Sequence record: PV935351.1
DNA length: 39,767 bases
Reading direction: 5' to 3' (one strand)
DNA from: a phage
The position numbers and the translations under genes are program-made. Shown in pieces: positions 1 to 36,611 of this stretch. Under the pieces are notes generated by a model. The model had not been told where the DNA came from. It did not search any database and was given only the letters and a program-made list of their open reading frames with translations. Every line of letters begins with the position of its first letter. Position 1 is the first letter of the stretch.

Positions 1-204
1 TCTCACAGTTCAAGAACCTCAAGTCTCCCCCCCTAGGCCCTCTTTCAGTCCAGACCAAAGGCCCTACCCATTACTGCTCCTTGCAGTCACAGCCAGTCTA
101 TCATAAGGTTGGACCGATGGTCAAGACGTTAGGTCGACGATAGGTCTAGGCTATGGCTTAGGGAAGGACGATAGGTAGAGGCTATAGGTCTTCTTTGAGT
201 CTCT
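1..204. repeat. left direct terminal repeat (DTR)
   Basis: Bases 1-204 are identical to 39564-39767 by direct comparison; typical of T7-like genome ends. Confidence 0.95.
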
Positions 205-234
205 ATCTGTATAGTGTTATAGTATAACATTACG

Positions 235-325
235 TCCTACACCTACAGTCTCACTAACCTACAGTCTCACTAACCTACAGTCTCAACCATAAGACACCAA
301 CACCTACAGTCAGAGACCTACGGTT
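235..325. repeat. short direct-repeat array just inside left DTR
   Basis: CCTACAGTCTCACTAA in three tandem copies (242-289, 16-bp period, third copy degenerate), plus CCTACAGTC at 303-311 and CCTACGGTT at 317-325. Confidence 0.8.
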
Positions 326-435
326 AATAGACACAAAGGCTATAGACTTAAGGTCTAAGACATGTTAGTCAAAGACTATATCCTCTTACACCATGGGGCC
401 GACGATAGCTTAATCAATATTATTTAAATAACCTA

Positions 436-466
436 TTGACTATAGGTCCAGACTATGGCCTAATAG
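436..466 (+). promoter_or_regulatory. candidate host sigma70 early promoter (weak match)
   Basis: TTGACT at 436-441 followed about 19 nt later by TAATAG; poor -10 match; lies in the early leader. Confidence 0.3.
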
Positions 467-575
467 CTTCCGTCAACACGACACGGCAACAACCGGATAG
501 TGAAGACGCCGGTCCGGTCCGGTTAAGTAGTCAGCCTGTAAGACATACGAACAACAGGCAACCGACAGAAAGTAG

Positions 576-605
576 TTGACAAGATGTAACGATAAGATGT
601 AAGAT
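576..605 (+). promoter_or_regulatory. candidate host sigma70 early promoter (T7 A3-like)
   Basis: TTGACA (576-581), 18-nt spacer, TAAGAT (600-605); the same -35/-10 hexamers as recalled for T7 A3. Confidence 0.5.
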
Positions 606-728
606 GTACCACATCGAAACAACGGTGATGACCAACACTGAAATGGTCTACCTGAAGTCCTCTGACTGAAGGGAATGCTCTTTAACAATCTGGATAAACT
701 CTTAATGTGCGCCGATAGCGACTAACTA

Positions 729-760
729 CAGGGCCTTTGAGTCTACATCTGAAGGCCCTG
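729..760 (+). other. stem-loop in gene 0.3 leader (possible RNase III site)
   Basis: CAGGGCCTT (729-737) and AAGGCCCTG (752-760) form a perfect 9-bp inverted repeat with a 14-nt loop, about 35 nt upstream of the gene 0.3 start. Confidence 0.5.
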
Positions 761-794
761 ACTGATAGTCACTAACAACTGAGAGGATATAACT

Positions 795-1304
795 ATGGAA
801 CGTAACGCTAACGCATACTATGAGCTGCTGGCTGCAACCGTTGAGCTGTTCAATGAGCGTATTCAGTGCGACGAAATAGCTGAAGGCGATGACTACAGCG
901 ATGCGCTACATGAGGTCGTAGACGGTAATGTTCCGCACTATTACCACGAGATTTTCACGGTGATGGCTGCTGATGGTATTGACCATGAGTTCGAAGACTC
1001 TGGGCTGATGCCTGAGACCAAGGACGTAACGCGTATACTACAAGCTCGCATCTATGAGGCACTGTATAACGATGTGTCTAATAGCTCTGACGTGGTCTGG
1101 TTTGAGGCTGAAGAGGAGGACGAAAAGGCTGAATATTGGGTAGTTGACACTAGAACAGGCGAGATAATTGATACAGCTGTATCAATTTACGAGGCTATTG
1201 CATGTGCAAAAGAACTATATGAGGAAGGTTTTCACATGCAGGTCGAAGACATCAACGATAACGTAGTGTTCGATCCTGAGGCTGCTGAGGAGGACTGCGA
1301 GTGA
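795..1304 (+). CDS. 0.3: Ocr-like DNA-mimic anti-restriction protein with C-terminal extension
   Basis: 169 aa; core [43 protein letters not shown] closely matches recalled T7 Ocr; about 55 extra acidic residues at the C-terminus; GAGG RBS. Confidence 0.85.
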
Positions 1305-1465
1305 TGGTAACTTATGGTCTCTGCCAGCACCACGTCTCCATCGCCAGGCTTATGGTCTTGACCGGGCGATTAACCCACGAGGAGTCTATGCGTCTCCTGA
1401 AGGTGCTCTATGAGCGCCGCAAACGTATGCACGATAGTCTACACGCTGAGGATAAACCACAATGA
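1304..1465 (+). CDS. small early protein, gp0.4-like
   Basis: 53 aa, ATG overlaps the gene 0.3 stop (TGATGG); GAGGAGG RBS; YGL...LLKVLYE pattern resembles recalled T7 gp0.4. Shorter than 60 aa, so absent from the ORF track. Confidence 0.5.
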   Translation: MVTYGLCQHHVSIARLMVLTGRLTHEESMRLLKVLYERRKRMHDSLHAEDKPQ

Positions 1466-1611
1466 AACGATACGCTATACACATTCCGGGATGGTGTTAC
1501 ACAATGACTTGCTACGGATACAACGAGAGAGACGCAAGAGCCCGCTTCCGTGACCAGCAAGGATTCGGTAAACGTCTGCCAAATGGTACGGCTATCTGGG
1601 AGATTGACTAA
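1462..1611 (+). CDS. hypothetical small early protein
   Basis: 49 aa (MKRYAIHIPGWCYTMTCYGYNERDARARF...), ATGA overlap with the upstream ORF, GAGG RBS. Confidence 0.45.
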   Translation: MKRYAIHIPGWCYTMTCYGYNERDARARFRDQQGFGKRLPNGTAIWEID

Positions 1612-1612
1612 C

Positions 1613-1738
1613 ATGTACCAGATAACTTATAGCAGTGAACAGGCGTTCTATGATGGGTGTTACGAGATGATGAAGCGTGGTGCTTGCTTCGTGGCTAATC
1701 ACCATGCGCTAACCATAACACTGACAGGTGGATACTGA
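1613..1738 (+). CDS. hypothetical small early protein
   Basis: 41 aa from ATG 1613 (MYQITYSSEQAFYDGCYEMMKRGACF...), GGGAG RBS; the track ORF 1550-1738 probably starts here. Confidence 0.4.
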   Translation: MYQITYSSEQAFYDGCYEMMKRGACFVANHHALTITLTGGY

Positions 1739-1808
1739 GTGATAGACGAGAGGTCATCTACTGATAGGTGGCCTCAAAGATTACCACTTACATTGATAGG
1801 ATTTAACT

Positions 1809-1913
1809 ATGAGTACTGCAATCATCTGGACCATCTCTGGCTTCGTAGCGTGGGGAATGTTTACTCTAGTCTGCAAACTACCGGTCCTTACTCAACTGTT
1901 ATGGGGCTTATGA
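1809..1913 (+). CDS. hypothetical small hydrophobic peptide
   Basis: 34 aa MSTAIIWTISGFVAWGMFTLVCKLPVLTQLLWGL, one predicted TM helix, AGGA upstream. Confidence 0.3.
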   Translation: MSTAIIWTISGFVAWGMFTLVCKLPVLTQLLWGL

Positions 1914-2113
1914 CTATGATATCTGCACTATTGATAGCCATAGGCTATGGACTTATCGCCTACGTGCTGGTGAGTGACATTAAAAAGGCGCGTAAAGTCT
2001 ACAAATTCAACTATGTACGTCTGGGCCGCTGGACCGTACGTCAACCTAACGGACGATTCATGCGCAACTTAGCGAACGTCTGGGATATAGCAACTATTGG
2101 GAGCAAACTGTAA
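1901..2113 (+). CDS. hypothetical small membrane protein (alternative GTG start at 1739)
   Basis: In-frame ATG at 1901 gives about 70 aa with hydrophobic segment MISALLIAIGYGLIAYVLV; the track's 1739 start is a GTG. Confidence 0.4.
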   Translation: MGLMTMISALLIAIGYGLIAYVLVSDIKKARKVYKFNYVRLGRWTVRQPNGRFMRNLANVWDIATIGSKL

Positions 2114-2505
2114 TGAACAAGTCAAATCGGGTACACGCACTGGACCAAATCATAACGCAACGCACATTCACTGATAAGAACGGCGTAGAGTGGAAGTATG
2201 TTGGAATGGACTCGCGTGGTCGCAACTACTGGGAGAAGACCGGGAGAAAGAGCGCTTATGTGCATCGTCGCTCGTCACACACCGTACGTCAACAGCAGGA
2301 GCGAGAGCGTGTACTTGAGGCACGACTCCGTGCCGAGGGCCATAAGTCTGAGCTGATGTGGCTGGTGTATGGTGGACGCCCAATCACTGACGATGGTAAA
2401 CTTCTGGTCTCAGGCTGGACGGCGAGAGACCAACGGTCAACCATCAAGCACACGACCAAAGGTGACTTCAGTCATCTCCACGCTAACCCACTGATATGCA
2501 AGTGA
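2113..2505 (+). CDS. hypothetical early protein
   Basis: 130 aa, basic; ATG overlaps the upstream stop (TAATG); GGGAG RBS; no motif recognised. Confidence 0.6.
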   Translation: MNKSNRVHALDQIITQRTFTDKNGVEWKYVGMDSRGRNYWEKTGRKSAYVHRRSSHTVRQQQERERVLEARLRAEGHKSELMWLVYGGRPITDDGKLLVSGWTARDQRSTIKHTTKGDFSHLHANPLICK

Positions 2506-2510
2506 TTCTG

Positions 2511-2533
2511 ACTTAACTATCACTATAGGACTC
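2511..2533 (+). promoter_or_regulatory. phage RNAP promoter upstream of the RNAP gene
   Basis: CTTAACTATCACTATAGGA, +1 G at 2528; -8 to -1 (TCACTATA) identical to the T7 promoter. Confidence 0.7.
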
Positions 2534-2602
2534 AAGGTCTAAGACTACAAGTGAAAGACCAAAGAGACTCTAAGTGAAAGACTAATAACAAGGACTTTAA
2601 GT

Positions 2603-5284
2603 ATGAGCGTCATCTCTATTGATAAACACGACTTCTCTGATGTGTCGAACGCCATTGAGCCGTTTAACCTGCTGGCAGACCACTACGGGCAAGACCTTGC
2701 AGTCAAACAGCTTCAGCTTGAGCATGAGGCATACACAGAAGGCGAGCGACGTTTCATCAAAAACCTTGAGCGACAGACTGAGCGCGGGGAACTGGCAGAC
2801 AATCAGGTCGCCAAGCCTTTGATGCAGACTCTGGTGCCTAAGATTGCGCAAGCAGTCAAGGAGTGGCACGAAGGCCAAGACGGGAAGCTGTCAACCTCTC
2901 GTCCTAGCGTAGCGTTCACCATGTTAAGCACCGAAGAGAAGGCCGTCAAGGACCGCTCTCTGCGTATCTCTTGCGAGTCTGCTGCGGTCATCATACTGAA
3001 GGTCATACTCTCCAAGCTGGTAAAGCCTGAAGGGATACCGATTACACCGATGGCCTCAGCGTTAGGTCGCACACTTGAGGACGAAATCCGCTTCGGTCGC
3101 ATCCGTGACAAGGAGAAGGAGCACTTCAAGAAGGCGATAGCTGAGAACCTGAACAAGCGAGCTGGGGCATCCTACAAGAAAGCCTACATGCAAGCGGTAG
3201 AGGCATCCATGCTGGAGCAAGGCCAACTGGAAGATGCGTGGGGGACTTGGAGTCCGACCGAAGCGGTACACGTTGGCATCAAGATGCTAGAGATTGTCAT
3301 CCAGTCCACACAACTGGTCGAGCTTAAGCGTTATGGTGCTGGCAATGCGGCGGCTGACGTTGAGATGGTCCACCTGTCAGACTTCTGGGTCAAGAAGATG
3401 GCACAACGAGGATTCAGCCTTGCGGGTATAGCTCCAGTCTACCAGCCTTGCGTCGTTCCACCTAAGCCGTGGACTGGTGTCGTAGGTGGTGGGTACTGGG
3501 CCAAAGGTCGCAGACCGCTACCCCTGATTCGCTTAGGGTCTAAATCAGCGGTGGCACGTTATGAAGACGTATACATGCCTGAAGTCTATGACGCTGTGAA
3601 TATCATCCAGAATACACCTTGGAAAGTGAACAAGAAGGTACTGGACGTGGTGAACATGGTCGAGAAGTTGAACAACACGCCTATTGATGACATCCCTCAG
3701 ATGGAGCCACTGAAGCCTGAAGACTATGCGGGTGAGACTGAGGAGGAACTCAAGGCATGGAAGAAGGCTGCTGCTGGTATCTATCGCCGCGAGAAGGCCC
3801 GACAGTCACGCAGATTATCACTGAGCTTTATCGTTAACCAAGCAAACAAGTTCTCTCAGTTCAAGGCCATCTGGTTCCCGTACAACATGGATTGGCGAGG
3901 TCGTGTCTACGCTGTCCCGATGTTCAACCCTCAGGGTAACGACATGCAGAAGGGTCTACTGACTCTGGCAGTCGGCAAGCCTATTGGTGCTGACGGTTTC
4001 AAATGGCTGAAGGTCCACGGTGCGAACTGTGCGGGTGTCGATAAAGTCACCTTCGAGGAGCGCATCAAGTGGGTGGAAGACAACCACGAAAACATCATTG
4101 CTGCTGCTAAGGCACCGATGGATAGTATTGAGTGGTGGGGCAAGTTAGACTCTCCGTTCTGTTTCCTCGCGTTCTGCTTCGAGTATGCTGGCGTAATGCA
4201 CCACGGCCTGTCTTACTCCTGCTCGCTGCCGATAGCGTTCGATGGGTCCTGCTCTGGTATTCAGCACTTCAGTGCGATGCTTCGTGACCACATCGGTGGA
4301 CATGCAGTAAACCTGACGCCATCCGGTAAGGTACAAGACATCTACCGCATTGTGTCTGACCGCATTGAGGAGGAGCTTAAAGTCCTGCTGATTACAGGTA
4401 CTGACAACGAGATGGACACTCACGAGGACAAGAAAACTGGTGAGAGTACCGAACGTATCAAGCTGGGGACACGAGAGCTGGCCCGTCAGTGGCTGACATA
4501 CGGTATGTCACGCAAGGTCACTAAGCGTTCAGTCATGACTCTGGCCTATGGGTCGAAAGAGTACGGCTTCGCAGACCAAGTTTATGAGGACATCGTGATG
4601 CCAGCGATTGACTCAGGGTCTGGCGCTATGTTCACCGAGCCTAGCCAAGCGTCTCGCTTCATGGCTAAGATGATTTGGGAAGCTGTGAGTGTGACCGTAG
4701 TTGCTGCGGTTGACGCGATGAAGTGGCTTCAAGGTGCTGCCAAGCTGCTGGCTGCTGAGGTGAAGGACAAGAAGACTGGAGAAATCCTGAAGCCTTGCCT
4801 TCCGGTACACTGGGTAACACCTGATGGTTTCCCGGTCTGGCAGGAATACCGCAAGAAGGATACCACTCGTCTGAACCTGATGTTCTTAGGGTCATTCAAC
4901 CTTCAACCTACGGTCAACAAAGGTATGAAGAAGGAGTTGGATAAGCACAAGCAGGAGTCAGGAATTAGCCCGAACTTCGTCCACTCACAAGATGGTAGCC
5001 ATCTCCGCAAGACTGTAGTCCACACTCACCGCAAGTATGGCGTGATGTCATTCGCAGTGATTCACGATAGCTTCGGGACCATCCCGGCTGACGCTGAGTA
5101 TCTGTTCCGTGGCGTCCGTGAGACAATGGTCGAGACCTACCGCGACAACGATGTGCTGCTTGACTTCTACGAGCAGTTTGAATACCAGCTTCACGAGAGC
5201 CAGCGCGACAAGTTGCCTGAGCTTCCGAAGAAAGGTAAACTAAATATCGAGGACATCTTGTCTTCAGACTTTGCATTCGCTTAA
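2603..5284 (+). CDS. 1: T7-type single-subunit DNA-directed RNA polymerase
   Basis: 893 aa; collinear with recalled T7 RNAP, ending in the shared FAFA terminus and including WFPYNMDWRGRVYA, LPIAFDGSCSGIQHFSAMLRD and HDSFGT. Confidence 0.98.
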   Translation: MSVISIDKHDFSDVSNAIEPFNLLADHYGQDLAVKQLQLEHEAYTEGERRFIKNLERQTERGELADNQVAKPLMQTLVPKIAQAVKEWHEGQDGKLSTSRPSVAFTMLSTEEKAVKDRSLRISCESAAVIILKVILSKLVKPEGIPITPMASALGRTLEDEIRFGRIRDKEKEHFKKAIAENLNKRAGASYKKAYMQAVEASMLEQGQLEDAWGTWSPTEAVHVGIKMLEIVIQSTQLVELKRYGAGNAAADVEMVHLSDFWVKKMAQRGFSLAGIAPVYQPCVVPPKPWTGVVGGGYWAKGRRPLPLIRLGSKSAVARYEDVYMPEVYDAVNIIQNTPWKVNKKVLDVVNMVEKLNNTPIDDIPQMEPLKPEDYAGETEEELKAWKKAAAGIYRREKARQSRRLSLSFIVNQANKFSQFKAIWFPYNMDWRGRVYAVPMFNPQGNDMQKGLLTLAVGKPIGADGFKWLKVHGANCAGVDKVTFEERIKWVEDNHENIIAAAKAPMDSIEWWGKLDSPFCFLAFCFEYAGVMHHGLSYSCSLPIAFDGSCSGIQHFSAMLRDHIGGHAVNLTPSGKVQDIYRIVSDRIEEELKVLLITGTDNEMDTHEDKKTGESTERIKLGTRELARQWLTYGMSRKVTKRSVMTLAYGSKEYGFADQVYEDIVMPAIDSGSGAMFTEPSQASRFMAKMIWEAVSVTVVAAVDAMKWLQGAAKLLAAEVKDKKTGEILKPCLPVHWVTPDGFPVWQEYRKKDTTRLNLMFLGSFNLQPTVNKGMKKELDKHKQESGISPNFVHSQDGSHLRKTVVHTHRKYGVMSFAVIHDSFGTIPADAEYLFRGVRETMVETYRDNDVLLDFYEQFEYQLHESQRDKLPELPKKGKLNIEDILSSDFAFA

Positions 5285-5298
5285 CAGGAGAGAGAGTT

Positions 5299-5514
5299 AT
5301 GAAATTTGCACACAAGCAGGCTGGAGTTAATGGTGGGACTCAAATCGTGACCGTAACAGAACACAACGGAAAGGGTCTGGTGAAGACCACGGTCATTCCT
5401 ACCGAAATGTCAAAGCAGCTTAACGTCCCATTCAAGACCCTCGTCTATCTTGTGGAATCCAGCCACGAGAAATACCTGAAAGACGCAGTGACCAAGCTGG
5501 AGCAGACCAAATGA
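5299..5514 (+). CDS. hypothetical protein
   Basis: 71 aa with a strong RBS (AGGAGAGAG); no motif recognised. Confidence 0.55.
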   Translation: MKFAHKQAGVNGGTQIVTVTEHNGKGLVKTTVIPTEMSKQLNVPFKTLVYLVESSHEKYLKDAVTKLEQTK

Positions 5515-5589
5515 CAGACCTACAGTTACTGGCCTTGTGGCTTGGAGCACTAGCAGTATTCACTTTAATCCAACGCAGAAGAGGTTAAC

Positions 5590-5612
5590 CCTAAACTATC
5601 ACTATAGGATTA
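5590..5612 (+). promoter_or_regulatory. phage RNAP promoter
   Basis: CTAAACTATCACTATAGGA, +1 G at 5607. Confidence 0.8.
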
Positions 5613-5662
5613 GACTCAAGGTCATGACTCAAAGTCGTGGCCTTCATGATTAACCCTAACTC
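5611..5662 (+). ncRNA. conserved structured RNA element, copy A (candidate RNase III site)
   Basis: TAGACTCAAGGTCAT, 11 variable nt, GTGGCCTTCATGATTAACCCTAACT; the same element recurs at 12952 and 36562. Confidence 0.55.
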
Positions 5663-5682
5663 ATTCAATCAGGAGCTACACC

Positions 5683-5862
5683 ATGTATCAGAACACTATC
5701 AACTTCGAGCGAATCCGTGAACGTCAGCAGACTGAAGACTACATTCCGAAGGGACGCAAGCTGAACAAGACCAAGCGTGGCGGCGGTGTCAAGGGTGCTT
5801 TCCGTAACGCTGAAGGCAAAGACTCTATGGTAAACCAAGAGAAGTATTTCGTAGGAGCGTAA
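5683..5862 (+). CDS. 1.1: gp1.1-like small basic protein
   Basis: 59 aa; KGRKLNKTKR matches recalled T7 gp1.1; GGAG RBS. Not in the ORF track (under 60 aa). Confidence 0.7.
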   Translation: MYQNTINFERIRERQQTEDYIPKGRKLNKTKRGGGVKGAFRNAEGKDSMVNQEKYFVGA

Positions 5863-5865
5863 GAC

Positions 5866-6117
5866 ATGAGTAAACGTTGGCTATTCGACGCATCCACGAG
5901 CCAGTGGTCAGCGGTAGGCCGGACTCACCGCGCGATGAGTGAGGCAGGACTTGATGTCCTAATGGATTACTCGCCGTTCCCCGGAAAAATTCTGGTCAGA
6001 GTAATTGAAGCAGATGGTGGGAGGCTTCTGGTCTCCAGAGAATTTACCGAAGATGAAATCTTTAACTGTGAGCAATGGTGCTTACAACAATTGAACGCTT
6101 ATAGGAGCTGGAAATAA
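5866..6117 (+). CDS. 1.2: gp1.2-like protein (T7 gp1.2 inhibits host dGTPase)
   Basis: 83 aa, same size and position as T7 gp1.2, ends ...NAYRSWK (T7 ends ...DWK). Confidence 0.7.
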   Translation: MSKRWLFDASTSQWSAVGRTHRAMSEAGLDVLMDYSPFPGKILVRVIEADGGRLLVSREFTEDEIFNCEQWCLQQLNAYRSWK

Positions 6118-7169
6118 TGACAACGACTATCAAAACTAACCCGCACCGCGCTGTAGATTACTCTGAGTCTGGCGTTAAGAAGGCACTGGAAGCAGCCGGG
6201 TCGCTTGAAGCTGAAGTGAAGTACGATGGCGTCCGGTTGAATCTTCCGGTCTTCCCTACTGGTGAGACCCAATGGTTGAGCCGTGAGTCTAAACCTCTCC
6301 CAGCCCTTAGCTGGTTGAACACTTCCGGTCAGGACATAGGAGCTACCAAAGCGAGCGACTGGCGGTGGTTCCTGAAGCAAGCTGGCTATGAAGGGACTGG
6401 TCTGATGATTGATGGCGAGGTCATGGTGAAAGGGGTTGACTTCAACACGTCTTCGGGCCTCATCCGCACGAAGTATGTCAAGTCTAAAAACTACGACTTC
6501 CACGATGGCGATTGGGACCTCAAGTCCAAGACTACTCAGTTCCGGCTGGACCGAGACCATATCAAGGTGGTCGTCTACGGTGTAGTGGACCTTAACGTCA
6601 TCCTTGACCCGAAAGCCGAAGGTCCTATCCATAGCGTCACACGCCTGAAGGCCGAAGCTATCGTCCCTCTCCTCCAGAAATACTTCCCGGAAATCGACTG
6701 GGTTCTGTCTGAGTCACACACGGTCTATGACCTTGAGTCGCTCAGCTCCCTGTACGAAGAGAAGCGGCTGGAAGGACATGAGGGTCTGGTAGTCAAGGAC
6801 CCGCTTGGTAAATACAAGCGTGGCAAGAAGTCAGGCATGTGGAAAATGAAGCCTGAGGAGACCATCGACGGGACCGTGTGTGGCCTAGTGTGGGGGACTC
6901 CGGGCAAGGCTAACGAAGGTAAGGTGATTGGCTTTGAGGTGCTGCTTGAGGATGGCATGGTGGTTAACGCTTGTGGCCTGACTGAAGAACAGAAGGATGA
7001 GTTTACGGAAGCCTGTAACACTGATACATATATCCTCGGTGAAATCAATCCATACGAAGGCTGGCAGTGTGAAGTCCTTTTCATGGAGAGGTTCCCTGAT
7101 GGCTCACTCCGTCACCCTAGCTTCAAGTGCTGGCGCGGGACGGAAGACAACCCGACCGTTAAGAGTTAA
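6117..7169 (+). CDS. 1.3: ATP-dependent DNA ligase
   Basis: 350 aa; adenylation motif I KYDGVR at residues 35-40; T7 gene 1.3 position. Confidence 0.95.
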   Translation: MTTTIKTNPHRAVDYSESGVKKALEAAGSLEAEVKYDGVRLNLPVFPTGETQWLSRESKPLPALSWLNTSGQDIGATKASDWRWFLKQAGYEGTGLMIDGEVMVKGVDFNTSSGLIRTKYVKSKNYDFHDGDWDLKSKTTQFRLDRDHIKVVVYGVVDLNVILDPKAEGPIHSVTRLKAEAIVPLLQKYFPEIDWVLSESHTVYDLESLSSLYEEKRLEGHEGLVVKDPLGKYKRGKKSGMWKMKPEETIDGTVCGLVWGTPGKANEGKVIGFEVLLEDGMVVNACGLTEEQKDEFTEACNTDTYILGEINPYEGWQCEVLFMERFPDGSLRHPSFKCWRGTEDNPTVKS

Positions 7170-7178
7170 CTAAACGTC

Positions 7179-7212
7179 AACCCAGTGGTCTCCGGACTGC
7201 TGGGTTTCTTTG
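7179..7212 (+). terminator. intrinsic terminator after ligase (TE-like early terminator)
   Basis: CCCAGTGG / CTGCTGGG stem (two G-U pairs) with an 8-nt loop, followed by TTTCTTTG. Confidence 0.65.
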
Positions 7213-7231
7213 CGTCTAGACCGTAGATAGA

Positions 7232-7254
7232 CCTAAACTATCACTATAGGACAA
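7232..7254 (+). promoter_or_regulatory. phage RNAP promoter
   Basis: CCTAAACTATCACTATAGGAC, +1 G at 7249. Confidence 0.8.
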
Positions 7255-7281
7255 CCATAACTTCGACCTAAGGAGGCCGAC

Positions 7282-7542
7282 ATGTTTAAGAACTTAATGT
7301 TCAACCGTTATACCAGTACCTTCCACCTGTCCAACAACCCGTTCGCTTGCATTAAGCGCAACGAGAAGCTGGACTACTTCGGGAAGGTCGTTAAGCTGTC
7401 ACCTACAGTCTACGCTCTGATTACTCAGGGTAAAGCTGAAGAGGCTCGCCAAAAACGTGAGACCAACGTACCTGTAGTCTACACCAAGTGGCCTCGCGTT
7501 CGTCTGTTTATTGAGTTCGTGAAGGAGGTGATCAATGGTTAA
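7282..7542 (+). CDS. hypothetical protein (gene 1.6 position)
   Basis: 86 aa; AAGGAGG RBS. Confidence 0.65.
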   Translation: MFKNLMFNRYTSTFHLSNNPFACIKRNEKLDYFGKVVKLSPTVYALITQGKAEEARQKRETNVPVVYTKWPRVRLFIEFVKEVING

Positions 7543-7975
7543 GGTGGGGGATACAGTTAAATATGTTGGACCAATTGGAGCCCACATGGGACGCTCCTGT
7601 GGCAAGGTGATAATGGTTAAGAATGAGCATGTGGCTGTTGTTAAGTGGCCCCATTCATCTGAACCACTCACTCACTCCATTAGTTCCTTAAGTATTACCA
7701 AGCAGGCGCAGTCCGAGCCGATAACCATAGGTCAGGAAGATAGCGTCCGTAAGCCATCTCACTATCAGGTCTTTGACGGTGTGGAATCCATTGAGATTAT
7801 CGCTCGGTCAATGACTGTCAGCGAGTTCCGTGGCTTCTGCATGGGTAACGTCCTTAAGTATCGACTCCGGGCTGGTAAGAAGTCCGAGCTGGCTACTATG
7901 GAGAAGGACCTAAACAAAGCAGCCTTCTACCAGGAGCTGTTCGACCTGCATAAAGGTAAGTGTTATGACGTCTAG
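7535..7975 (+). CDS. 1.7: gp1.7-like protein (nucleotide kinase family, C-terminal homology only)
   Basis: 146 aa; the C-terminal 80 aa (KPSHYQVFDGVESIEIIARSMTV...LKYRLRAGKKSELA...KCY) match recalled T7 gp1.7; the N-terminal 65 aa differ and lack the Cys-rich motifs. Confidence 0.75.
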   Translation: MVKVGDTVKYVGPIGAHMGRSCGKVIMVKNEHVAVVKWPHSSEPLTHSISSLSITKQAQSEPITIGQEDSVRKPSHYQVFDGVESIEIIARSMTVSEFRGFCMGNVLKYRLRAGKKSELATMEKDLNKAAFYQELFDLHKGKCYDV

Positions 7976-8387
7976 TGATTGCATTGACCATGACTACAAC
8001 TGCAAGAGCTACGCAAATGTGTATTCCAAAGCTCATGGTAGAAACTTTGGTCTTCACCGAATAGTTCTAGCGGAGAAGTTAGGAGTCGATGTGGCTGAAA
8101 TGAAGGGAGTAGCGATGCACTCTTGTGACAATAAGAGATGTGTCAATCCTGAACACTTACAGTTAGGGACCCAGAGTCAGAACGTACTGGATGCACACTC
8201 AAGAGGACTGGTAAACGTGGTGTCTGGAGAAAAGCACCCAATGATCAAGCTCACAGACGAGCAGATTGCATATGTTCTGGGTAGTACGCTAGGCGCGAGA
8301 GCGATTGGCAGAGAGCTGGGAGTTTCACATTCGTTAATAAGCAGGTTGAGAAATGGAAAAGCAAGAGCTTCCCAGCGAGTGGGCTGA
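7965..8387 (+). CDS. HNH homing endonuclease
   Basis: 140 aa; HNH core HSCDNKRCVNPEHLQLGTQSQN; C-terminal HTH-like segment; AT-richer with AGA/AGG codons. Confidence 0.8.
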   Translation: MTSSDCIDHDYNCKSYANVYSKAHGRNFGLHRIVLAEKLGVDVAEMKGVAMHSCDNKRCVNPEHLQLGTQSQNVLDAHSRGLVNVVSGEKHPMIKLTDEQIAYVLGSTLGARAIGRELGVSHSLISRLRNGKARASQRVG

Positions 8388-8460
8388 GAGAAAATTTGAG
8401 GAGACAGGTAACGTCGATTACCTTCATCTCTACAACCAATGGAAGGAGCGTGGTCTATGA
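8353..8460 (+). CDS. hypothetical small ORF (gene 1.8 position)
   Basis: 35 aa, overlaps the HNH gene end and the gene 2 start; no clear RBS. Confidence 0.25.
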
Positions 8461-8615
8461 CTGACGTAGAAAAGAAATACATCGTGGAGCTTGAGGGTCG
8501 CGTTCAGTCATTCGATGTTCCGGTGTACGCAAAGTCTCTTGAAGAGGCTACCCTGAAGTCCCAAGAGTATGAGGACGCGGGGTTTGTGGTCGGACGGATT
8601 CGTCCTGAGACCTAA
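8457..8615 (+). CDS. 2: gp2-like inhibitor of host RNA polymerase
   Basis: 52 aa [31 protein letters not shown]...[11 protein letters not shown]; resembles recalled T7 gp2; GGAAGGAG RBS. Confidence 0.75.
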
Positions 8616-8633
8616 ACTATCACTGTAGGACAG
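8611..8633 (+). promoter_or_regulatory. phage RNAP promoter (variant, G at -3)
   Basis: CCTAAACTATCACTGTAGGAC; overlaps the gene 2 stop; precedes the SSB gene. Confidence 0.6.
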
Positions 8634-8673
8634 ACGTCCAGTTAGTAACTTTAAAAATAGGAGATTTACACCG

Positions 8674-9372
8674 ATGGCTAAAGAGCAACTGAAGACTTTC
8701 ACCACTCCGGTAGCTGGTATCGTTGAGCCTTACGCATGGCTGAACAAAGCAGACACCAAGTTTAATGATCGCGGTGAGCATAAGGTTAACCTGACTTTCG
8801 ACCTGAGCAACCCGAAGGTCCGTAAGATGATTGATGTCTTACAGAAGATTCACGACGATGCGTATGCGAAAGCACTCGCAGACCACGAGAAGAACCCACC
8901 TCAGGTTCAGCGTGGCAAGAAGCCTATTGAACCACGAGAAGGCGACATGCCGTGGATTGAGAATGGTGACGGTACTGTTACCCTGAAGTTTAAATGCTTT
9001 GCGTCTTACCTGAAGGATGGTAAGTCAGAGCCTATCGTATTACGGTTCTACGACACCGATGCTAAGTTAATCCGTGACGTCCCGAATATTGGCGCTGGCT
9101 CAAAGCTGAAGGTCAAGTTTAAAGTCCTGCCGTTCAAGTGGAACGCTGCGACTGGTGCAAGCGTTAAGCTCCAGCTTGAGTCCTGCCTTCTGGTAGAACT
9201 GAAGGAATGGAAAGGTGATGGTTCTGGTGGAGATGGTGGCTGGGGTGATGATGAAGACCTAGGCACTGGCTACAAAGCGTCAACCGATGGTGACTTCGGT
9301 GACGATGACTTCGGTGACGATGGTTCCGAAGGCGGTGACGACTCCAACTCTGGTGGCGATTACGACTTCTAA
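8674..9372 (+). CDS. 2.5: single-stranded DNA-binding protein
   Basis: 232 aa; GKKP...EGDMPW and GASVKLQLES match recalled T7 gp2.5; acidic C-tail ending in Phe (GGDYDF). Confidence 0.95.
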   Translation: MAKEQLKTFTTPVAGIVEPYAWLNKADTKFNDRGEHKVNLTFDLSNPKVRKMIDVLQKIHDDAYAKALADHEKNPPQVQRGKKPIEPREGDMPWIENGDGTVTLKFKCFASYLKDGKSEPIVLRFYDTDAKLIRDVPNIGAGSKLKVKFKVLPFKWNAATGASVKLQLESCLLVELKEWKGDGSGGDGGWGDDEDLGTGYKASTDGDFGDDDFGDDGSEGGDDSNSGGDYDF

Positions 9373-9824
9373 TGGCCCAATGGTCTGCAAAACGGGGGCA
9401 CTCTGTGGGTGCCTACCGCTCTGGACTTGAAGCCAAGAACCAGCAGTGGCTGGAACAGAACGGCGTCAAAGCGGAGTACGAAAGCCATTATATCAACTAT
9501 GTGATTCCGGCTTCCGACCACAAGTACACACCAGATTTTATCCTTCCTAACGGTATTATCGTGGAGACCAAAGGTATCTTCGATAGTGATGACCGTAAGA
9601 AGCACCTTCTGGTACGAGAACAGCACCCAGAGTTAGACATTCGGTTCGTGTTCTCAAGTTCCCGCTCCAAGTTATACAAAGGGTCTCCGACCACGTATGG
9701 CGCATGGTGCGAAAAGAACGGCTATAAGTATGCCGACAAGTTTATCCCGGTTGAGTGGCTGAAAGAGGCGACTGTACGTCTTCCTTCCGGCATCCTCATC
9801 CCTAAGAAGAAAGGAGTTAAGTGA
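9372..9824 (+). CDS. 3: endonuclease I (Holliday junction resolvase)
   Basis: 150 aa; YVIPASDHKYTPDF...GIIVETKG...DDRKKHLLVREQHPELDIRFVFSSSRSKLYKGSPT matches recalled T7 gp3. Confidence 0.95.
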   Translation: MAQWSAKRGHSVGAYRSGLEAKNQQWLEQNGVKAEYESHYINYVIPASDHKYTPDFILPNGIIVETKGIFDSDDRKKHLLVREQHPELDIRFVFSSSRSKLYKGSPTTYGAWCEKNGYKYADKFIPVEWLKEATVRLPSGILIPKKKGVK

Positions 9825-10315
9825 TGACTCAGAAATATAGACTTAAAGTTAGCCGCTACGGGTGGCCTGAAGGTACTATCGTTACGAAATGTGCGAAAGA
9901 CCCGTACCCAACGCCATTATCGACTCTGGTAGAAACCTCCGAGCGTGGCACCTACAAGCACGGAGCAGAAGGGCATAACACGCAGCCTGATGGTATGTGG
10001 GGGGCATGGGTCTGTGATCATGAACTTGAGGAAATCAAGCCGGAAGAGAAACTCACTGGTGTACAGACCACTCAAGTCCTGCCAGCCTCAAGTGTCCCTC
10101 CTGTCACCGTTAAGCGTGAAGTCCTGACCATCGACAAGATTGGTGTAGGCCAGACGTTCATCGTCCACGGAAAGCCTGAAGAAGTTTATGTGAAGATTAG
10201 CAACTCACACGTCTTCAACCATAAGCGTCTCCAGATGCACACCACGGACGCACAACGCTTCACCCAGCACCTGAATCTAGTGGTCGTAGAAGTGGTGGTG
10301 TACAATGGTAAGTAA
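9824..10315 (+). CDS. hypothetical protein with no T7 counterpart at this position
   Basis: 163 aa from ATG 9824 (AAGGAG RBS; the track start at 9821 is a GTG); no motif recognised. Confidence 0.7.
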   Translation: MTQKYRLKVSRYGWPEGTIVTKCAKDPYPTPLSTLVETSERGTYKHGAEGHNTQPDGMWGAWVCDHELEEIKPEEKLTGVQTTQVLPASSVPPVTVKREVLTIDKIGVGQTFIVHGKPEEVYVKISNSHVFNHKRLQMHTTDAQRFTQHLNLVVVEVVVYNGK

Positions 10316-10763
10316 GGTACAGTTCAACCCACGGTCCCGTACTGACGCTATCTTCGTTCACTGTTCGGCTACCAAGCCAGATATGGACATCGGGGTAGAT
10401 ACCATCCGTATGTGGCACAAGCAGCAAGGCTGGCTGGACGTAGGCTACCACTTTATCATCAAGCGTGATGGCACTGTAGAAGAGGGTCGCCCGGTCAATG
10501 TCGTAGGGTCACACGTTAAGGATTGGAACTCCCGGTCCGTAGGAGTCTGCCTTGTAGGGGGAATTGACGCTAAGGGTCAGTTTGAAGCTAACTTCACTCC
10601 AGCCCAGATGAACTCCCTGCGCAACAAGCTGGCTGACCTGAAGTCCATGTATCCTCAGGCAGAAATCAAAGCACACCATGACGTAGCACCTAAGGCGTGT
10701 CCAAGTTTCGACTTGCAACGCTGGCTGTCTACTAATGAACTGGTCACTTCAGACCGTGGTTAG
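10305..10763 (+). CDS. 3.5: N-acetylmuramoyl-L-alanine amidase (T7 lysozyme)
   Basis: 152 aa; TDAIFVHCSATKP...WLDVGYHFIIKRDGTVEEGR...HHDVAPKACPSFDL...NELVTSDRG nearly identical to recalled T7 gp3.5. Confidence 0.97.
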   Translation: MVSKVQFNPRSRTDAIFVHCSATKPDMDIGVDTIRMWHKQQGWLDVGYHFIIKRDGTVEEGRPVNVVGSHVKDWNSRSVGVCLVGGIDAKGQFEANFTPAQMNSLRNKLADLKSMYPQAEIKAHHDVAPKACPSFDLQRWLSTNELVTSDRG

Positions 10764-10787
10764 TAAACTCTAAAGGAGAATAACTCG

Positions 10788-11003
10788 ATGATTAAACTTA
10801 TTGAATTTCTTGGTCGTCTGGTGGTGCGTGGTTATCGTCGTGCTGCGATACTGGAACGAAAGGTAGAAAAGAAGACTGCTGACAGTGCGGCTGATGCTGC
10901 TGCTCTGGCCGACAAGCTGACCATCGAGTCACTGGAAGCTGGCATGAAGGCTCGTCAGGCTGATACCAAAGCTGACCAATTGGCTCAGTTCTTCAAAGCC
11001 TAA
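10788..11003 (+). CDS. hypothetical protein
   Basis: 71 aa, hydrophobic N-terminus then Ala/Lys-rich helix; AAGGAGA RBS. Confidence 0.6.
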   Translation: MIKLIEFLGRLVVRGYRRAAILERKVEKKTADSAADAAALADKLTIESLEAGMKARQADTKADQLAQFFKA

Positions 11004-11021
11004 ACTATCACCTTAGGGATG
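10999..11021 (+). promoter_or_regulatory. degenerate phage-promoter-like sequence upstream of gene 4
   Basis: CTAAACTATCACCTTAGGGA; two changes at -4/-3 relative to the other promoters. Confidence 0.35.
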
Positions 11022-11041
11022 GGACCGCTAGTCCTGTCCCT
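11015..11041 (+). other. stable hairpin in the gene 4 leader
   Basis: AGGGATGGGA / TCCTGTCCCT 10-bp stem (two G-U pairs), 7-nt loop, followed by TTGTT. Confidence 0.5.
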
Positions 11042-11068
11042 TTGTTCGCATTTGTGATTAAGGAGTGA

Positions 11069-12948
<1,880 letters not shown>

Positions 12949-12951
12949 GTC

Positions 12952-12998
12952 TAGACTCAAGGTCATTCACATCGAGTGGCCTTTATGATTAGACTAAA
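12952..12998 (+). ncRNA. conserved structured RNA element, copy B (candidate RNase III site)
   Basis: TAGACTCAAGGTCAT, 9 variable nt, GTGGCCTTTATGATTAGACTAAAC. Confidence 0.55.
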
Positions 12999-13011
12999 CG
13001 GAGGATTAACC

Positions 13012-13413
13012 ATGTTTGATTGCATTGAGTGGACCGGGTGTCGAGATAGTTTCGGCTATGGTATGCGAAAGGTCAACGGGAAGGTCCGTAGACTACATCT
13101 GATAGCCTTCGAGGAGGCGAATGGTCCGATACCAGAGGGAATGGTCGTGAGGCACAAATGTGACAACCCTGCGTGCTACAATCCAGAACACTTGGAGCTG
13201 GGGACAAGGGCTGAGAACAATCACGATAGAGACGTTAGAGGTCGAACCGCTAAAGGCGTGCGACATGGAAGCTCTAAGCTTACACCTGAAATAGTACAAG
13301 AGGCCAAGGCTCTTTACGCAGTAGGTGGCTGGACTCACCGCTCATTAGGTAAGAAGTATGGAGTGGGTCACCGCACACTGGCTAGAGCAATTGGAGGAAA
13401 AACATGGACTTAA
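13012..13413 (+). CDS. HNH homing endonuclease
   Basis: 134 aa from ATG 13012 (GGAGG RBS); HKCDNPACYNPEHLELGTRAENNHD core; C-terminal HTH-like segment; AGA/AGG codons. Confidence 0.8.
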   Translation: MFDCIEWTGCRDSFGYGMRKVNGKVRRLHLIAFEEANGPIPEGMVVRHKCDNPACYNPEHLELGTRAENNHDRDVRGRTAKGVRHGSSKLTPEIVQEAKALYAVGGWTHRSLGKKYGVGHRTLARAIGGKTWT

Positions 13414-15572
13414 GTAACGTATATGGGTCTGACATCGAGACCAACGGTCTCCTTGATACAGTCTCCCAGTTTCACTGTGGGGTCCTGATTAACGCCGAGT
13501 CGAATGAGACCCTTAAGTATGGGGTAGCTCCGATGGTCGGTATCGTCGGTGGCTTCAAAGAGTATGTACAGAAGGTGGAAGAGATTGCCGCATCACCTGA
13601 TGGTATGCTGGTATTCCACAACGGTATCAACTATGACGTCCCGGCTATTGACAAGCTGAAGCGTCTGTACTTTGGGAAACGCTTTAACTTCCCGAAACAC
13701 AAGATGATTGATACCTTGGTGCTTGGGCGCTTGATGTATCCAAACATTAAGTTCTCAGACATGGGCGCAGTGAAAGCTGGTCGTCTGCCACCTAAGATGA
13801 TGGGACGCCAGTCTCTTGAGGCTTGGGGCTATCGTCTCGGTGAGATGAAAGGTGAGTACAAACACGATTACGTTGCCAAGTGCAAGGCTGAAGGTATCGA
13901 ATATAAGGCTGGGGACGAATGGTTGTTCCCATCTCAGGAGATGCTAGACTATAACGTTCAAGACGTTGTGGTCACACTGGCGTTGTTCAAGAAGTTCCTG
14001 ACTGACAAGTATTACTTCCAGTCTGAACAGTTCGCTTTCGACCAGATTTATGCGTTGCGTCTGGAACATGATGCTGCGTGGACCTGTGCGAAGATGGAAC
14101 GTAACGGCTATCCGATGAACACCGAGATGGTCGAAGGCTTATATCGTGAACTCACCGTCAAACGTGCAGAGTTGTTGGACAAGCTGCGTTCGACTTTCGG
14201 TAGCTGGTATGCACCAAAGGGAGGCAAGGAGTTCTTCAAGCACCCACGGACAGGCAAGGACCTTCCGAAGTATCCGCGAGTCGTGTATCCTAAGGTCGGG
14301 TCAGTATTCAAGAAGCCGAAGAACAAAGCTCAACGCTTAGGTCTGGAACCTTGCGAGTTCGACTCACGAGACACGATGGAGGGAGCGCCGTTCACACCTA
14401 TCACTTACGTTGAGTTTAATCCGGGAAGCGGGGACCACTTAGCGAAAGTCCTGATGGAGCGTGGCTGGGAGCCTGTGGACTTCACTGACACCGGGAAACC
14501 TGTAGTCGATGACGAGACGTTAGAACACGTTAAGTTACCAGACGAAGAGGCTCAGGCTTGCGTAGAGCTGGTCCGTGAGTACCTGGTAGTCCAGAAGCGC
14601 ATCGGTCAGGCTGCTGAAGGTAAGAACGCATGGTTGAAACTTGTAGGTCCAGACGGACGTATGCACGGTTCAATCAACCCATGCGGTGCAGTAACAGGAC
14701 GTGCGACTCATAGTTCACCAAACATGGCTCAGGTCCCTGCTAACGGTGCTCCGTATGGTGAGATTTGCCGGGGTGCTTTCGGTGCAGCTTGGAACAAGAC
14801 GGATGGTAAGCCAGACCCTTGGATTCAAGTGGGTGTGGATGCTTCAGGTCTTGAGCTTCGTTGTCTGGGGAACCGAGCGGCTCCGTTTGATGGTGGTGCC
14901 TATGCGAAGACTGTGGTAGAAGGCGACATCCACTGGGCCAACGCAGTAAACGCTGGGTTAGCACCTAACGTCCCACGCGATAAGGCGAACCACGACCATG
15001 ATGCTTTCCGTAACAACGCTAAGACGTTCATCTATGCGTTCCTGTATGGTGCAGGGGCCGCTAAGATTGGACTGATAGTAGGCGGTGGTAAGAAGGAAGG
15101 TTCAGCTCTCATGAAGAAATTCATTGAGGGTACACCAGCCATCAAAGACCTCAGGGAAGCTGTGAGTAGTACGTTAATCTCAGACTCTAAGTGGGTGGAC
15201 GGAGAGAACATCGTCAAGTGGAAACGCCGTTGGTTGCGTGGACTTGATGGTCGCCGTATCCACATCCGGTCGCCACACTCAGCACTGAACGCCTTACTTC
15301 AAGGCGATGGTGCGGTAGTCTGTAAGCACTGGATTGTCGAGACTGAACGTATGCTTGAAGAGGCAGGGTATGTTCACGGCTGGGAAGGAGACTTTGCGTA
15401 CATGGCATGGGTTCACGACGAATTGCAGATTGCGTGCCGTACTCAGGAGATTGCCGAAGAAGTAGTCAAGATTGCTCAACTTGCTATGCGTAAGGTGGGT
15501 GAGTTCTATAACTTTAAATGTGTCCTTGATACCGAAGGTAAGATTGGACCAACGTGGAAGGAGTGTCACTAA
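13404..15572 (+). CDS. 5: DNA polymerase (family A, T7 gp5 type)
   Basis: 722 aa; N-terminal exonuclease motif SDIETNGL; LEAWGYRLGEMKGEY, KTFIYAFLYGAG and YMAWVHDE match recalled T7 gp5. Confidence 0.98.
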   Translation: MDLSNVYGSDIETNGLLDTVSQFHCGVLINAESNETLKYGVAPMVGIVGGFKEYVQKVEEIAASPDGMLVFHNGINYDVPAIDKLKRLYFGKRFNFPKHKMIDTLVLGRLMYPNIKFSDMGAVKAGRLPPKMMGRQSLEAWGYRLGEMKGEYKHDYVAKCKAEGIEYKAGDEWLFPSQEMLDYNVQDVVVTLALFKKFLTDKYYFQSEQFAFDQIYALRLEHDAAWTCAKMERNGYPMNTEMVEGLYRELTVKRAELLDKLRSTFGSWYAPKGGKEFFKHPRTGKDLPKYPRVVYPKVGSVFKKPKNKAQRLGLEPCEFDSRDTMEGAPFTPITYVEFNPGSGDHLAKVLMERGWEPVDFTDTGKPVVDDETLEHVKLPDEEAQACVELVREYLVVQKRIGQAAEGKNAWLKLVGPDGRMHGSINPCGAVTGRATHSSPNMAQVPANGAPYGEICRGAFGAAWNKTDGKPDPWIQVGVDASGLELRCLGNRAAPFDGGAYAKTVVEGDIHWANAVNAGLAPNVPRDKANHDHDAFRNNAKTFIYAFLYGAGAAKIGLIVGGGKKEGSALMKKFIEGTPAIKDLREAVSSTLISDSKWVDGENIVKWKRRWLRGLDGRRIHIRSPHSALNALLQGDGAVVCKHWIVETERMLEEAGYVHGWEGDFAYMAWVHDELQIACRTQEIAEEVVKIAQLAMRKVGEFYNFKCVLDTEGKIGPTWKECH

Positions 15573-15730
15573 TGGCTAAAACTTATAGCGAGCAGGAGGT
15601 CAAAGACCTGATGCGGTCAGCTTGGTGGTGTGGACACGAGGAGTCTCGTTATAGTCCAAACCTCAGTGGACAGTGCAGTCGAGACATTCGTGAAATTCTG
15701 AAAGAACATAACGAAGAAGGAGAAGACTAA
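15572..15730 (+). CDS. hypothetical small protein
   Basis: 52 aa, ATG overlaps the gene 5 stop (TAATG), translationally coupled. Confidence 0.5.
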   Translation: MAKTYSEQEVKDLMRSAWWCGHEESRYSPNLSGQCSRDIREILKEHNEEGED

Positions 15731-16014
15731 TGGCTATTACTAAACGTATTCGTGTGAGTTTTGACCTGAAGATGGTTGTTAGCTCAAAGAGAGAAGATAC
15801 AGTGTGTCGCCAACTGGCTGAGATGACTAAAGCCTACGCTGATGGTGAGAAGCTGGATGGGCTTCAGATGGCTTTGGTCAAAGCAGCAATAGAGTCAGGC
15901 CCTGAGTCTGCCATTGAAATTGTCACCAAGAAGATCATCAAGGAGGAGCTGGTAGACGCCTTTGGTGAGGGTCAGTCCGGTGTGTCCAACCTGCGATTCG
16001 AGGTCAAGCAATGA
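15730..16014 (+). CDS. 5.5: gp5.5-like protein (T7 gp5.5 binds host H-NS)
   Basis: 94 aa; MAITKRIRVSFDL resembles the recalled T7 gp5.5 N-terminus (MAMTKRFKVSFDV). Confidence 0.75.
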   Translation: MAITKRIRVSFDLKMVVSSKREDTVCRQLAEMTKAYADGEKLDGLQMALVKAAIESGPESAIEIVTKKIIKEELVDAFGEGQSGVSNLRFEVKQ

Positions 16015-16220
16015 GTGAATACTTACGGGTCCTAGCGGCCCTTAAGTCCTGCCCGAAGACCTTCCAGTCCAACTATGTGCGCAACAATGCAGCACTGGTG
16101 GCTGAGGCTGCGAGTCGTGGACATCTGAGCTGTCTGTCTATGGACGGGCGTAACAACGGTGCGTGGGAGATTACCGCTGCCGGCACCAAGTTCCTGAACC
16201 AACACGGAGGCTGCCTGTGA
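16011..16220 (+). CDS. 5.7: gp5.7-like protein
   Basis: 69 aa; MSEYLRVLAALKSCPKTFQSNYVRNNAALVAEAASRGH near-identical to recalled T7 gp5.7. Confidence 0.9.
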   Translation: MSEYLRVLAALKSCPKTFQSNYVRNNAALVAEAASRGHLSCLSMDGRNNGAWEITAAGTKFLNQHGGCL

Positions 16221-17083: not shown

Positions 17084-17157
17084 TTTACTGGGTCGGACTT
17101 CTGGCCCTTTACTGCATGTACAAGTGGTTCGGGTCGAACAACCGTCCTAAACACTGA
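17065..17157 (+). CDS. hypothetical small hydrophobic peptide (gene 6.3 position)
   Basis: 30 aa MDTIHVIYWVGLLALYCMYKWFGSNNRPKH; AAGGAGG RBS 8 nt upstream. Confidence 0.4.
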   Translation: MDTIHVIYWVGLLALYCMYKWFGSNNRPKH

Positions 17158-17209
17158 GTCTAACCGATAGTCATATCCTATCAATCCAACAGTCATCCAT
17201 AGGTGGAAC

Positions 17210-17232
17210 ACTAAACTATCACTATAGGGACT
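17210..17232 (+). promoter_or_regulatory. phage RNAP promoter
   Basis: CTAAACTATCACTATAGGGAC, +1 G at 17227; flanked by a 9-bp inverted repeat (17169-17177 / 17244-17252). Confidence 0.8.
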
Positions 17233-17293
17233 TTAGGACCTAAGATATGACTATAAGATAGACTTTAGTCTTAACTTAAAGAGGAGATTCAAG

Positions 17294-17566: not shown

Positions 17567-17580
17567 CTGTAGGAGGGACT

Positions 17581-17805: not shown

Positions 17806-17809
17806 GACA

Positions 17810-18455: not shown

Positions 18456-18466
18456 GGAGGTGACTA

Positions 18467-36557: not shown

Positions 36558-36561
36558 GTGT

Positions 36562-36611
36562 TAGACTCAAGGTCATTACTATATGTAGTGGCCTTTATGG
36601 TTAACACTAAC
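36562..36611 (+). ncRNA. conserved structured RNA element, copy C (candidate RNase III site)
   Basis: TAGACTCAAGGTCAT, 11 variable nt, GTGGCCTTTATGGTTAACACTAACT; sits where T7 has the R18.5 site. Confidence 0.6.

Follow-up and report, generated by a model that had tools for sequence, protein, structure and literature searches.

The DNA analysed here, hereafter the window, is 39,767 bp long and is the complete genome of a T7-like phage of the genus Kayfunavirus (K1F group). A 2-kb piece of it is 91–93% identical to Escherichia phages pO2 and EcoDS1, and over a 25-kb piece the identity to K1F-like Escherichia phages (Kayfunavirus), phiYIO1-1 and phiHAO1-1 among them, is about 96%. Gene order in the window is that of T7 (Table 1). 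The ORFs between ocr and gene 1 are all small and match PHROGs of unknown function, and the T7/T3 gene 0.7 protein kinase has no detected homologue in the early region (795–2505). The phage promoter core AACTATCACTATAGGR is present in eleven copies, each 5' of a gene block: a search with the promoter 16-mer, allowing up to 3 mismatches, gave 12 matches versus 0.23 expected by chance, and the 11 of these 12 that precede genes were read as promoters. At the two ends, 11-mers are shared between positions 1 to about 180 and 39564–39767, always 39,563 bp apart; this indicates a direct terminal repeat, and the window is therefore the whole linear genome with T7-type ends. The EcoDS1 record carries an annotated terminal repeat of 178 bp. 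Just inside the left terminal repeat (240–285), ACCTACAGTCT occurs three times at a 16-bp period (241, 257 and 273), and further exact 11-mer copies lie at 7401 and 23181 and, on the minus strand, at 38138; the repeats may represent a T7-like left-end repeat array.

Table 1. Genes, promoter and hairpins of the window that are discussed in the text
Feature	Position	Strand	Remarks
R0.3-like weak member	709–781	+	22.1 bits, E 0.004; immediately 5' of gene 0.3
ocr-like gene 0.3	start 795
R0.5-like weak member, GAGUGAUAGACGAGAGGUCAUCUACUGAUAGGUGGCCUCAAAGAUUACCACUUAC	1730–1796	+	30.4 bits, E 3e-5
RNA polymerase gene	2603–5284
71-aa ORF			3' of RNA polymerase gene, 5' of copy 1
Phage RNA polymerase promoter core AACTATCACTATAGGA	5594–5609	+	directly 5' of copy 1
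R1.1-type hairpin (copy 1)	5605–5658	+	model match, fold, alignment with T7 and T7M R1.1
Gene 1.1 homologue, 59 aa	start 5683
Ligase gene	6117–7169
Primase/helicase gene	11072–12772
Small gene 5' of copy 2	end 12948
R4.7-type hairpin (copy 2)	12948–12995	+	model match, fold, pair probabilities, T7 sequence
HNH endonuclease gene	13012–13413
DNA polymerase gene	13404–15572
Tail spike gene, 1064 aa	32772–35966
Small terminase gene 18	36294–36557
R18.5-type hairpin (copy 3)	36557–36608	+	model match, fold, T7 R18.5 identity
Rz-like spanin gene 18.5	36659–37108
Large terminase gene	37105–38868

The pattern TAGACTCAAGGTCAT-N(8-12)-GTGGCCTTYATGRTTA has exactly three matches in the window, all on the + strand (5611–5652, 12952–12991 and 36562–36603), and none in 100 dinucleotide-preserving shuffles. 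A first-pass annotation of this DNA had reported an element occurring three times, at 5611, 12952 and 36562, with 9–11 variable nucleotides in its centre, and both statements are borne out, the variable cores measuring 11, 9 and 11 nt in copies 1, 2 and 3, respectively. The gene map likewise agrees with its placement of the copies in the intergenic leaders before gene 1.1, the HNH/DNA polymerase block and gene 18.5: copy 1 lies between the 71-aa ORF and the gene 1.1 homologue, copy 2 between a small gene and the HNH endonuclease and DNA polymerase genes, and copy 3 between the small terminase and the Rz-like spanin genes. The copies are 71–80% identical among themselves, that is, as similar to each other as to their orthologues. 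A search with the 3' half by itself gave a single additional loose match in the window, at 1768. Transcripts from the promoter preceding copy 1 would start inside the lower stem of that copy, the predicted +1 being G5607.

All three copies fold into one shared architecture composed of a lower stem, an asymmetric internal loop, an upper stem and a small terminal loop. The lower stem has 7–10 bp of variable sequence and the internal loop opposes ACUC to YAUGR, while the upper stem, 10–11 bp long, is made of AAGGUCAU paired with GUGGCCUU, including two U-G wobbles, and of 2–3 additional, variable pairs closed by a loop of 3–5 nt. The three copies and the three corresponding T7 sites have the same architecture in MFE and centroid folds (z -2.9 to -4.3), and the pair probabilities of the hairpins are 0.98–1.0. 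In copy 1 (-20.2 kcal/mol, z -4.3), the lower stem pairs UAGG.UUAG (5605–5613) with UUAA.CCUA (5650–5658), the internal loop sets ACUC (5614–5617) opposite CAUGA (5645–5649), and the upper stem pairs 5618–5628/29 with 5633/34–5644 around a loop at about 5629–5633. In copy 2 (-22.0 kcal/mol, z -3.25), GGUCUAG (12948–12954) pairs with UUAGACU (12989–12995), ACUC faces UAUGA, and the upper stem (12959–12968 with 12974–12983) is closed by the loop ACAUC. In copy 3 (-23.4 kcal/mol, z -3.4), AGUGUUAG (36557–36564) pairs with UUAACACU (36601–36608), ACUC faces UAUGG, and the upper stem (36569–36579 with 36585–36595) is closed by the loop UAUAU.

The variable core thus turns out to be the distal 2–3 pairs and the loop of one continuous 10–11 bp helix and not a separate hairpin. 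The distal pairs are G-C, A-U and C-G in copy 1, U-A and C-G in copy 2, and U-A, A-U and C-G in copy 3; they differ between copies yet stay paired, and the compensatory change previously ascribed to the central pairs therefore holds. Only one of the three core hairpins that had been proposed along with it stands: GAC and GTC do pair, with a probability of about 1, whereas CAC/GTG and ACTA/TAGT are ruled out as hairpins, having a probability of 0.000 in the ensemble because their register differs from that of the real helix.

The same motif is found in T7 at the same three gene junctions, as AACTCAAGGTCATTCGCAAGAGTGGCCTTTATGATTG (5857–5895) 3' of promoter phi1.1A, CCTCAAGGTCGCCAAAGTGGTGGCCTTCATGAAT (13866–13897) before gene 4.7 and ACTCAAGGCCACTACAGATAGTGGTCTTTATGGAT (36826–36862) before gene 18.5. 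In the GenBank record of T7M (JX421753, T3-like), ten stem-loops carry the label 'RNase III recognition site', and the records of T3 (NC_003298) and T7M annotate the homologues of the three copies as RNase III recognition sites R1.1, R4.7 and R18.5. In both phages promoter phi1.1 is followed by R1.1, matching positions 5594–5658 of the window. Among the T7 sites, copy 3 is closest to R18.5 (73% identity). The T7 records NC_001604 and V01146 list promoters and no RNase III features, the records of K1F and EcoDS1 carry no annotation of such sites, a literature search found nothing on RNase III in Kayfunavirus, and the Kvp1 paper makes no mention of RNase.

No Rfam family was matched at gathering score in a scan of the whole window, and a covariance model was therefore built here, on a MAFFT alignment of 13 sites (the three window copies, the three T7 sites and seven T7M sites). 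This alignment is collinear, with the invariant columns AAGG.C and GUGG.CU. RNAalifold extracts from it 19 pairs, 10 of which show compensatory changes, mostly in the lower stem; by pair counts, 94.3% of cells are paired versus 78.3% in shuffles and 30–48% in slid controls. Across 80 RNA-polymerase-anchored IMG/VR loci, the model gave 200 matches. The 150 best of these comprise 107 distinct sequences, in which 93.9% of cells are paired and 13 of the 19 pairs undergo double-sided changes (287 such cells versus 93 in shuffles). The alignment behind these values, having been fitted to the model, is biased towards the structure, but the 13-site MAFFT alignment agrees with it. Folding and covariance analysis with homologues included, the check that the first-pass annotation had attached to its claim of selection on RNA structure, hence reveals a conserved and covarying fold. 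As to the site of covariation, some of it is in the distal pairs, as claimed, but most is in the lower stem, which that annotation did not contain.

These data also bear on a DNA-level reading, in which the repeats would act as a protein-binding or replication-origin element, or as a recombination hotspot common to T7-like phages, the RNA fold being incidental. The primary replication origin of T3 and T7M is indeed in the same region, downstream of gene 1, and copies that resemble each other as much as their orthologues, with identical 40-nt blocks, could support recombination. However, all 200 of the 200 model matches are on the transcribed strand, and the reverse strand of copy 3 scores 9.9 bits only. 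Furthermore, G-U wobbles are conserved at several positions where they cannot pair on the complementary strand, on which they would become C-A mismatches, or in a DNA cruciform; the compensatory substitutions of the lower stem keep pairing, not sequence; and the annotated T3/T7M origin is a segment distinct from R1.1. The wobble pairs and the strand bias therefore rule out a DNA-level palindrome, and a role of the repeats as DNA is extremely unlikely.

The covariance model matches copies 1, 2 and 3 at 5598–5665 (63.4 bits, E 1e-13), 12939–13004 (61.9 bits) and 36549–36616 (65.2 bits). These scores of 62–65 bits are the same as those of T7's own sites, the T7M sites scoring 54–69 bits. The model also recovers T7 hairpins that were not in the seed, in the R0.3, R0.5, R1, R1.3 and R6.5 regions (846–908, 1421–1486, 3094–3156, 6401–6466 and 18495–18581). 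The T7 cleavage coordinates, which I take to be 890, 1468, 3138, 6448 and 18563, each fall within one of these non-seed matches, and the R18.5 cut is presumably at 36856 (Dunn & Studier 1983); a literature search for the exact T7 coordinates found nothing. In the K1F genome, the model detects the same three strong sites together with three weak early ones. More broadly, BLAST with the 73-nt element hit 808 phage records, with hosts that include Klebsiella, Escherichia, Salmonella, Yersinia, Vibrio and others. Of 80 terminase-anchored loci, 12 carry the R18.5-type element, and all of these are relatives with a terminase identity of about 69% or more. In this set it is absent from several loci at 66–74% terminase identity, and also from T7-like contigs that are more distant and mostly environmental. 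IMG/VR was also scanned for the exact pattern TCAAGGTC-N(8-26)-TGGCCTT; the matches listed were mostly single chance matches in unrelated contigs, and the scan was not used.

The common gene junctions, the column-by-column alignment, scores of 62–65 bits and the T3/T7M annotation uphold the equivalence to T7 R1.1, R4.7 and R18.5 that had been proposed from position. Judging from the sequence, the three elements are very probably RNase III processing signals of polycistronic mRNAs, orthologous to these T7 sites. Such elements have long been known, with annotated examples in T3 and T7M, and the window copies add members to the kind.

Alternatively, the copies might be intrinsic (rho-independent) terminators or attenuators, a G+C-containing hairpin followed by UUUAUG stopping host or phage RNA polymerase between gene blocks. 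Like an intrinsic terminator, each has a stable upper stem and then 2–3 U, and the homologue of the 36562 element in Escherichia phage vB_EcoA_ASO2B (Kayfunavirus; MZ726794.1, 36793–36829) is annotated 'rho-independent terminator; discovered using WebGeSTer and TranstermHP'. Unlike in an intrinsic terminator, however, the tails UUCAUGAUUA, UUUAUGAUUA and UUUAUGGUUA contain no U-run and pair into the lower stem, and a conserved internal loop next to a covarying lower stem is left unexplained. In addition, a terminator scan of positions 1–20000 did not call copies 1 and 2, and copy 1 lies 10 nt 3' of a phage promoter and 5' of the gene which this promoter serves. The homologous T7 elements are, moreover, accepted RNase III sites, R1.1 being a standard substrate of the enzyme (PMC1540722). 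The terminator reading was rejected on the missing U-tract, the paired tail and the negative scan for copies 1 and 2, and has very little probability left; the label in MZ726794.1 is probably a mis-annotated RNase III hairpin.

Inspection of the copies against the rules established on T7 R1.1 relates their conserved positions to RNase III reactivity. On that substrate, the minimum helix between the cut and the loop measures 11 bp (Pertzev & Nicholson 2006, PMC1540722). A 4-bp proximal box (G-C, A-U/U-A, A-U, A-U/U-A) and a 2-bp distal box (U-A, U-G) are required, and the sequence of the loop is of no importance (PMC1540722). In substrates of this class, internal loops restrict cleavage to one bond and the 3' hairpin is protective (PMC1540722). 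All three copies have G-C, A-U and A-U at positions 1–3 of the proximal box, which lies at the loop-proximal end of their upper stem, and an upper helix of 10–11 bp plus a C-U or C-C apposition adjoining the internal loop. The apposition next to the presumed cut is C-C, not C-U, in copy 1 and in T7 R4.7. Copies 2 and 3 contain the distal box (U-A and U-G), and the upper stem of copy 2 (AAGGUCAUUC/GAGUGGCCUU) is that of T7 R1.1, base for base. In copy 1, U-G is followed by G-C where R1.1 has U-A, a deviation comparable to that of T7 R4.7.

RNA elements of this shape might also have another main role, as uncut stabilisers of 3' ends, as translational operators of the gene downstream or as sites bound by a phage protein. 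T7 can grow in the absence of RNase III (PMC6938266), bulge or loop motifs and a G-C pair at position 4 of the proximal box can uncouple RNase III binding from cleavage (PMC1540722), and each element lies 25–60 nt upstream of a start codon. Against this, there is no antideterminant G-C pair next to the predicted cut in the copies, and copy 2 shares its entire upper stem with R1.1. A single gene-specific operator is disfavoured because the downstream genes differ in kind, and a non-cleavage role in general is not favoured, and is indeed highly improbable, because the conserved positions are mapped determinants of RNase III reactivity.

If the copies are processing signals, as I favour, the following course of events may be proposed by homology with T7. 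In the + strand transcript, each copy would fold into a quasi-continuous helix of ~20 bp broken by the asymmetric internal loop. The host E. coli RNase III dimer would recognise the conserved upper stem through its dsRNA-binding and nuclease domains, with the AAGG/CCUU end as its proximal box and the U-G/U-A pairs close to the loop as its distal box. Since the internal loop removes the second scissile bond, a single cut would be made, on the 3' side of the internal loop; by homology it is predicted after the U of YAU^GR, i.e. after U5647 (CAU^GA), U12986 and U36598. The upstream mRNA would then end in a stable hairpin shielding it from 3'-to-5' exonucleases, and the downstream mRNAs (genes 1.1–1.3; HNH and DNA polymerase; genes 18.5–19) would gain a 5'-monophosphate end and leaders of 35, 25 and 60 nt before the start codon. 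The 60-nt leader predicted for copy 3 compares with 61 nt in T7 if the T7 cut is at 36856. Cleavage, its exact position and its effects on mRNA stability and translation are thus all predictions by analogy. T7 mRNAs are processed at ten such sites and T7 grows without RNase III (PMC6938266); the sites would therefore tune expression and not be essential.

Two weaker members of the family, both with the architecture of the three copies, emerged in the early region when the covariance model was run with filters off (Table 1). The R0.5-like member is intergenic, 5' of a 34-codon hydrophobic ORF (1809–1913), has a lower stem, an internal loop and an 11-bp upper stem (z -2.25), and has equivalents in K1F and EcoDS1. 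The R0.3-like member combines an upper stem CAGGGCCUU...AAGGCCCUG with a longer loop and a lower stem GCGACUA/UAGUCAC (-27.4 kcal/mol, z -3.0). The model search revealed no member before gene 1, where T7 and T3 have R1, and no match in the window for R1.3-like or R6.5-like members; folding upstream of the ligase gene and in the surroundings of the promoter at 17214 gave nothing convincing.

The first-pass annotation had further noted the element's core, GACTCAAGGTC, at 2529 and a degenerate version of it at 345. The words are present at both places, but they lack the 3' half and have no covariance-model match, and were rejected as elements; folds there are no better than those of shuffles (z -0.16 and -1.13), and no stable fold was found in 2526–2600 or 340–365. 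As a separate observation, GACTYAAGGTCTAAGAC is present both at 2529, 3' of the promoter before gene 1 (2526–2600), and at 345 (340–365), and AAGTGAAAGAC is repeated at 2549 and 2573.

Two other hairpins of the + strand deserve mention. At 11015–11041, an 11-bp hairpin GGGAUGGGACC...GGUCCUGUCCC is followed by CCCUUUGUUC (z -3.9) and starts near the predicted +1 of a promoter-like site (11003–11018); its architecture and tail match those of R3.8, an RNase III site annotated in T7M. At 25409–25458, before gene 13, a 12-bp stem GAAGGGCCUAUAG / CUAUAGGCCCUU (z -3.8) encloses the phage promoter 25430–25445, such that the full stem is present in read-through transcripts only; this is the same design as that of the R13 stem-loop annotated in T7M.

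The 11-mer GACTCAAGGTC is also found on the minus strand, inside genes, at 6729 and 18745. Within the ligase gene, ATGACCTTGAGTC (6727–6739, +) is a perfect reverse complement of GACTCAAGGTCAT, the 13-nt 5' arm of the elements. By chance, such a match would be expected about 0.001 times. It does not continue into the flanks; it recurs at the same position in 14 related loci of Kayfunavirus and is absent from K1F. The second antisense copy, of 11 nt, lies in gene 8 (18745–18755). These antisense matches may be coincidences of coding sequence.

The T7 gene 0.7 kinase stimulates RNase III. One might imagine that in K1F-like phages, in which no homologue of this kinase was detected, the family has shrunk to three copies, near-optimal and almost identical, whose uniformity is maintained by intragenomic gene conversion or by selection for a role beyond processing, such as titrating host RNase III or serving as portable 3'-stabiliser modules exchanged between phages. 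This idea is a long shot; if it were true, the 13-nt antisense match at 6727–6739 could be a long-range pairing partner instead of a chance occurrence.

The elements imply no new biology, and their value lies in annotation: K1F-group records, including the K1F and EcoDS1 references, carry no annotation of these sites. Assigning them to RNase III puts right the transcript maps for a group of phages that serve in therapy of K1 E. coli and in engineering, and shows which intergenic hairpins to keep when a genome is refactored. The covariance model, for its part, detects the family in T7-like phages of enterobacteria and of Vibrio.

When set beside known systems, the copies form one aligned family with the T3/T7M stem-loops R0.3, R0.5, R1, R1.1, R1.3, R4.7, R6.5 and R18.5, and the order promoter phi1.1, R1.1, gene 1.1 is that of T3 and T7M. 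The latter phages have seven or eight strong members; in the window there are three, with two weak ones besides, and, unlike in T3/T7M, no member is detectable before gene 1 or the ligase gene (R1 and R1.3). With E. coli RNase III substrates the copies share an 11-bp helix from cut to loop, the proximal-box pairs and a non-Watson-Crick position 4, and differ from them in the G-C that replaces the distal-box U-A in copy 1; their 3–5 nt loops are not GNRA tetraloops. The likeness to T7 R1.1, R4.7 and R18.5, which belong to a family of ten T7 sites, extends to the core ACUCAAGGUCAY...GUGGCCUUYAUGR, the three gene junctions and the fold. In contrast, the lower-stem sequences differ from those of the T7 sites yet pair, the distal 2–3 pairs and the loops differ as well, and copy 2 precedes an HNH endonuclease gene where T7 has gene 4.7. 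All window copies have UAG...UUA at the top of their lower stem, and they vary less among themselves than do the three sites of T7, for which cleavage is established; for the phage of the window, cleavage is predicted by homology with them.
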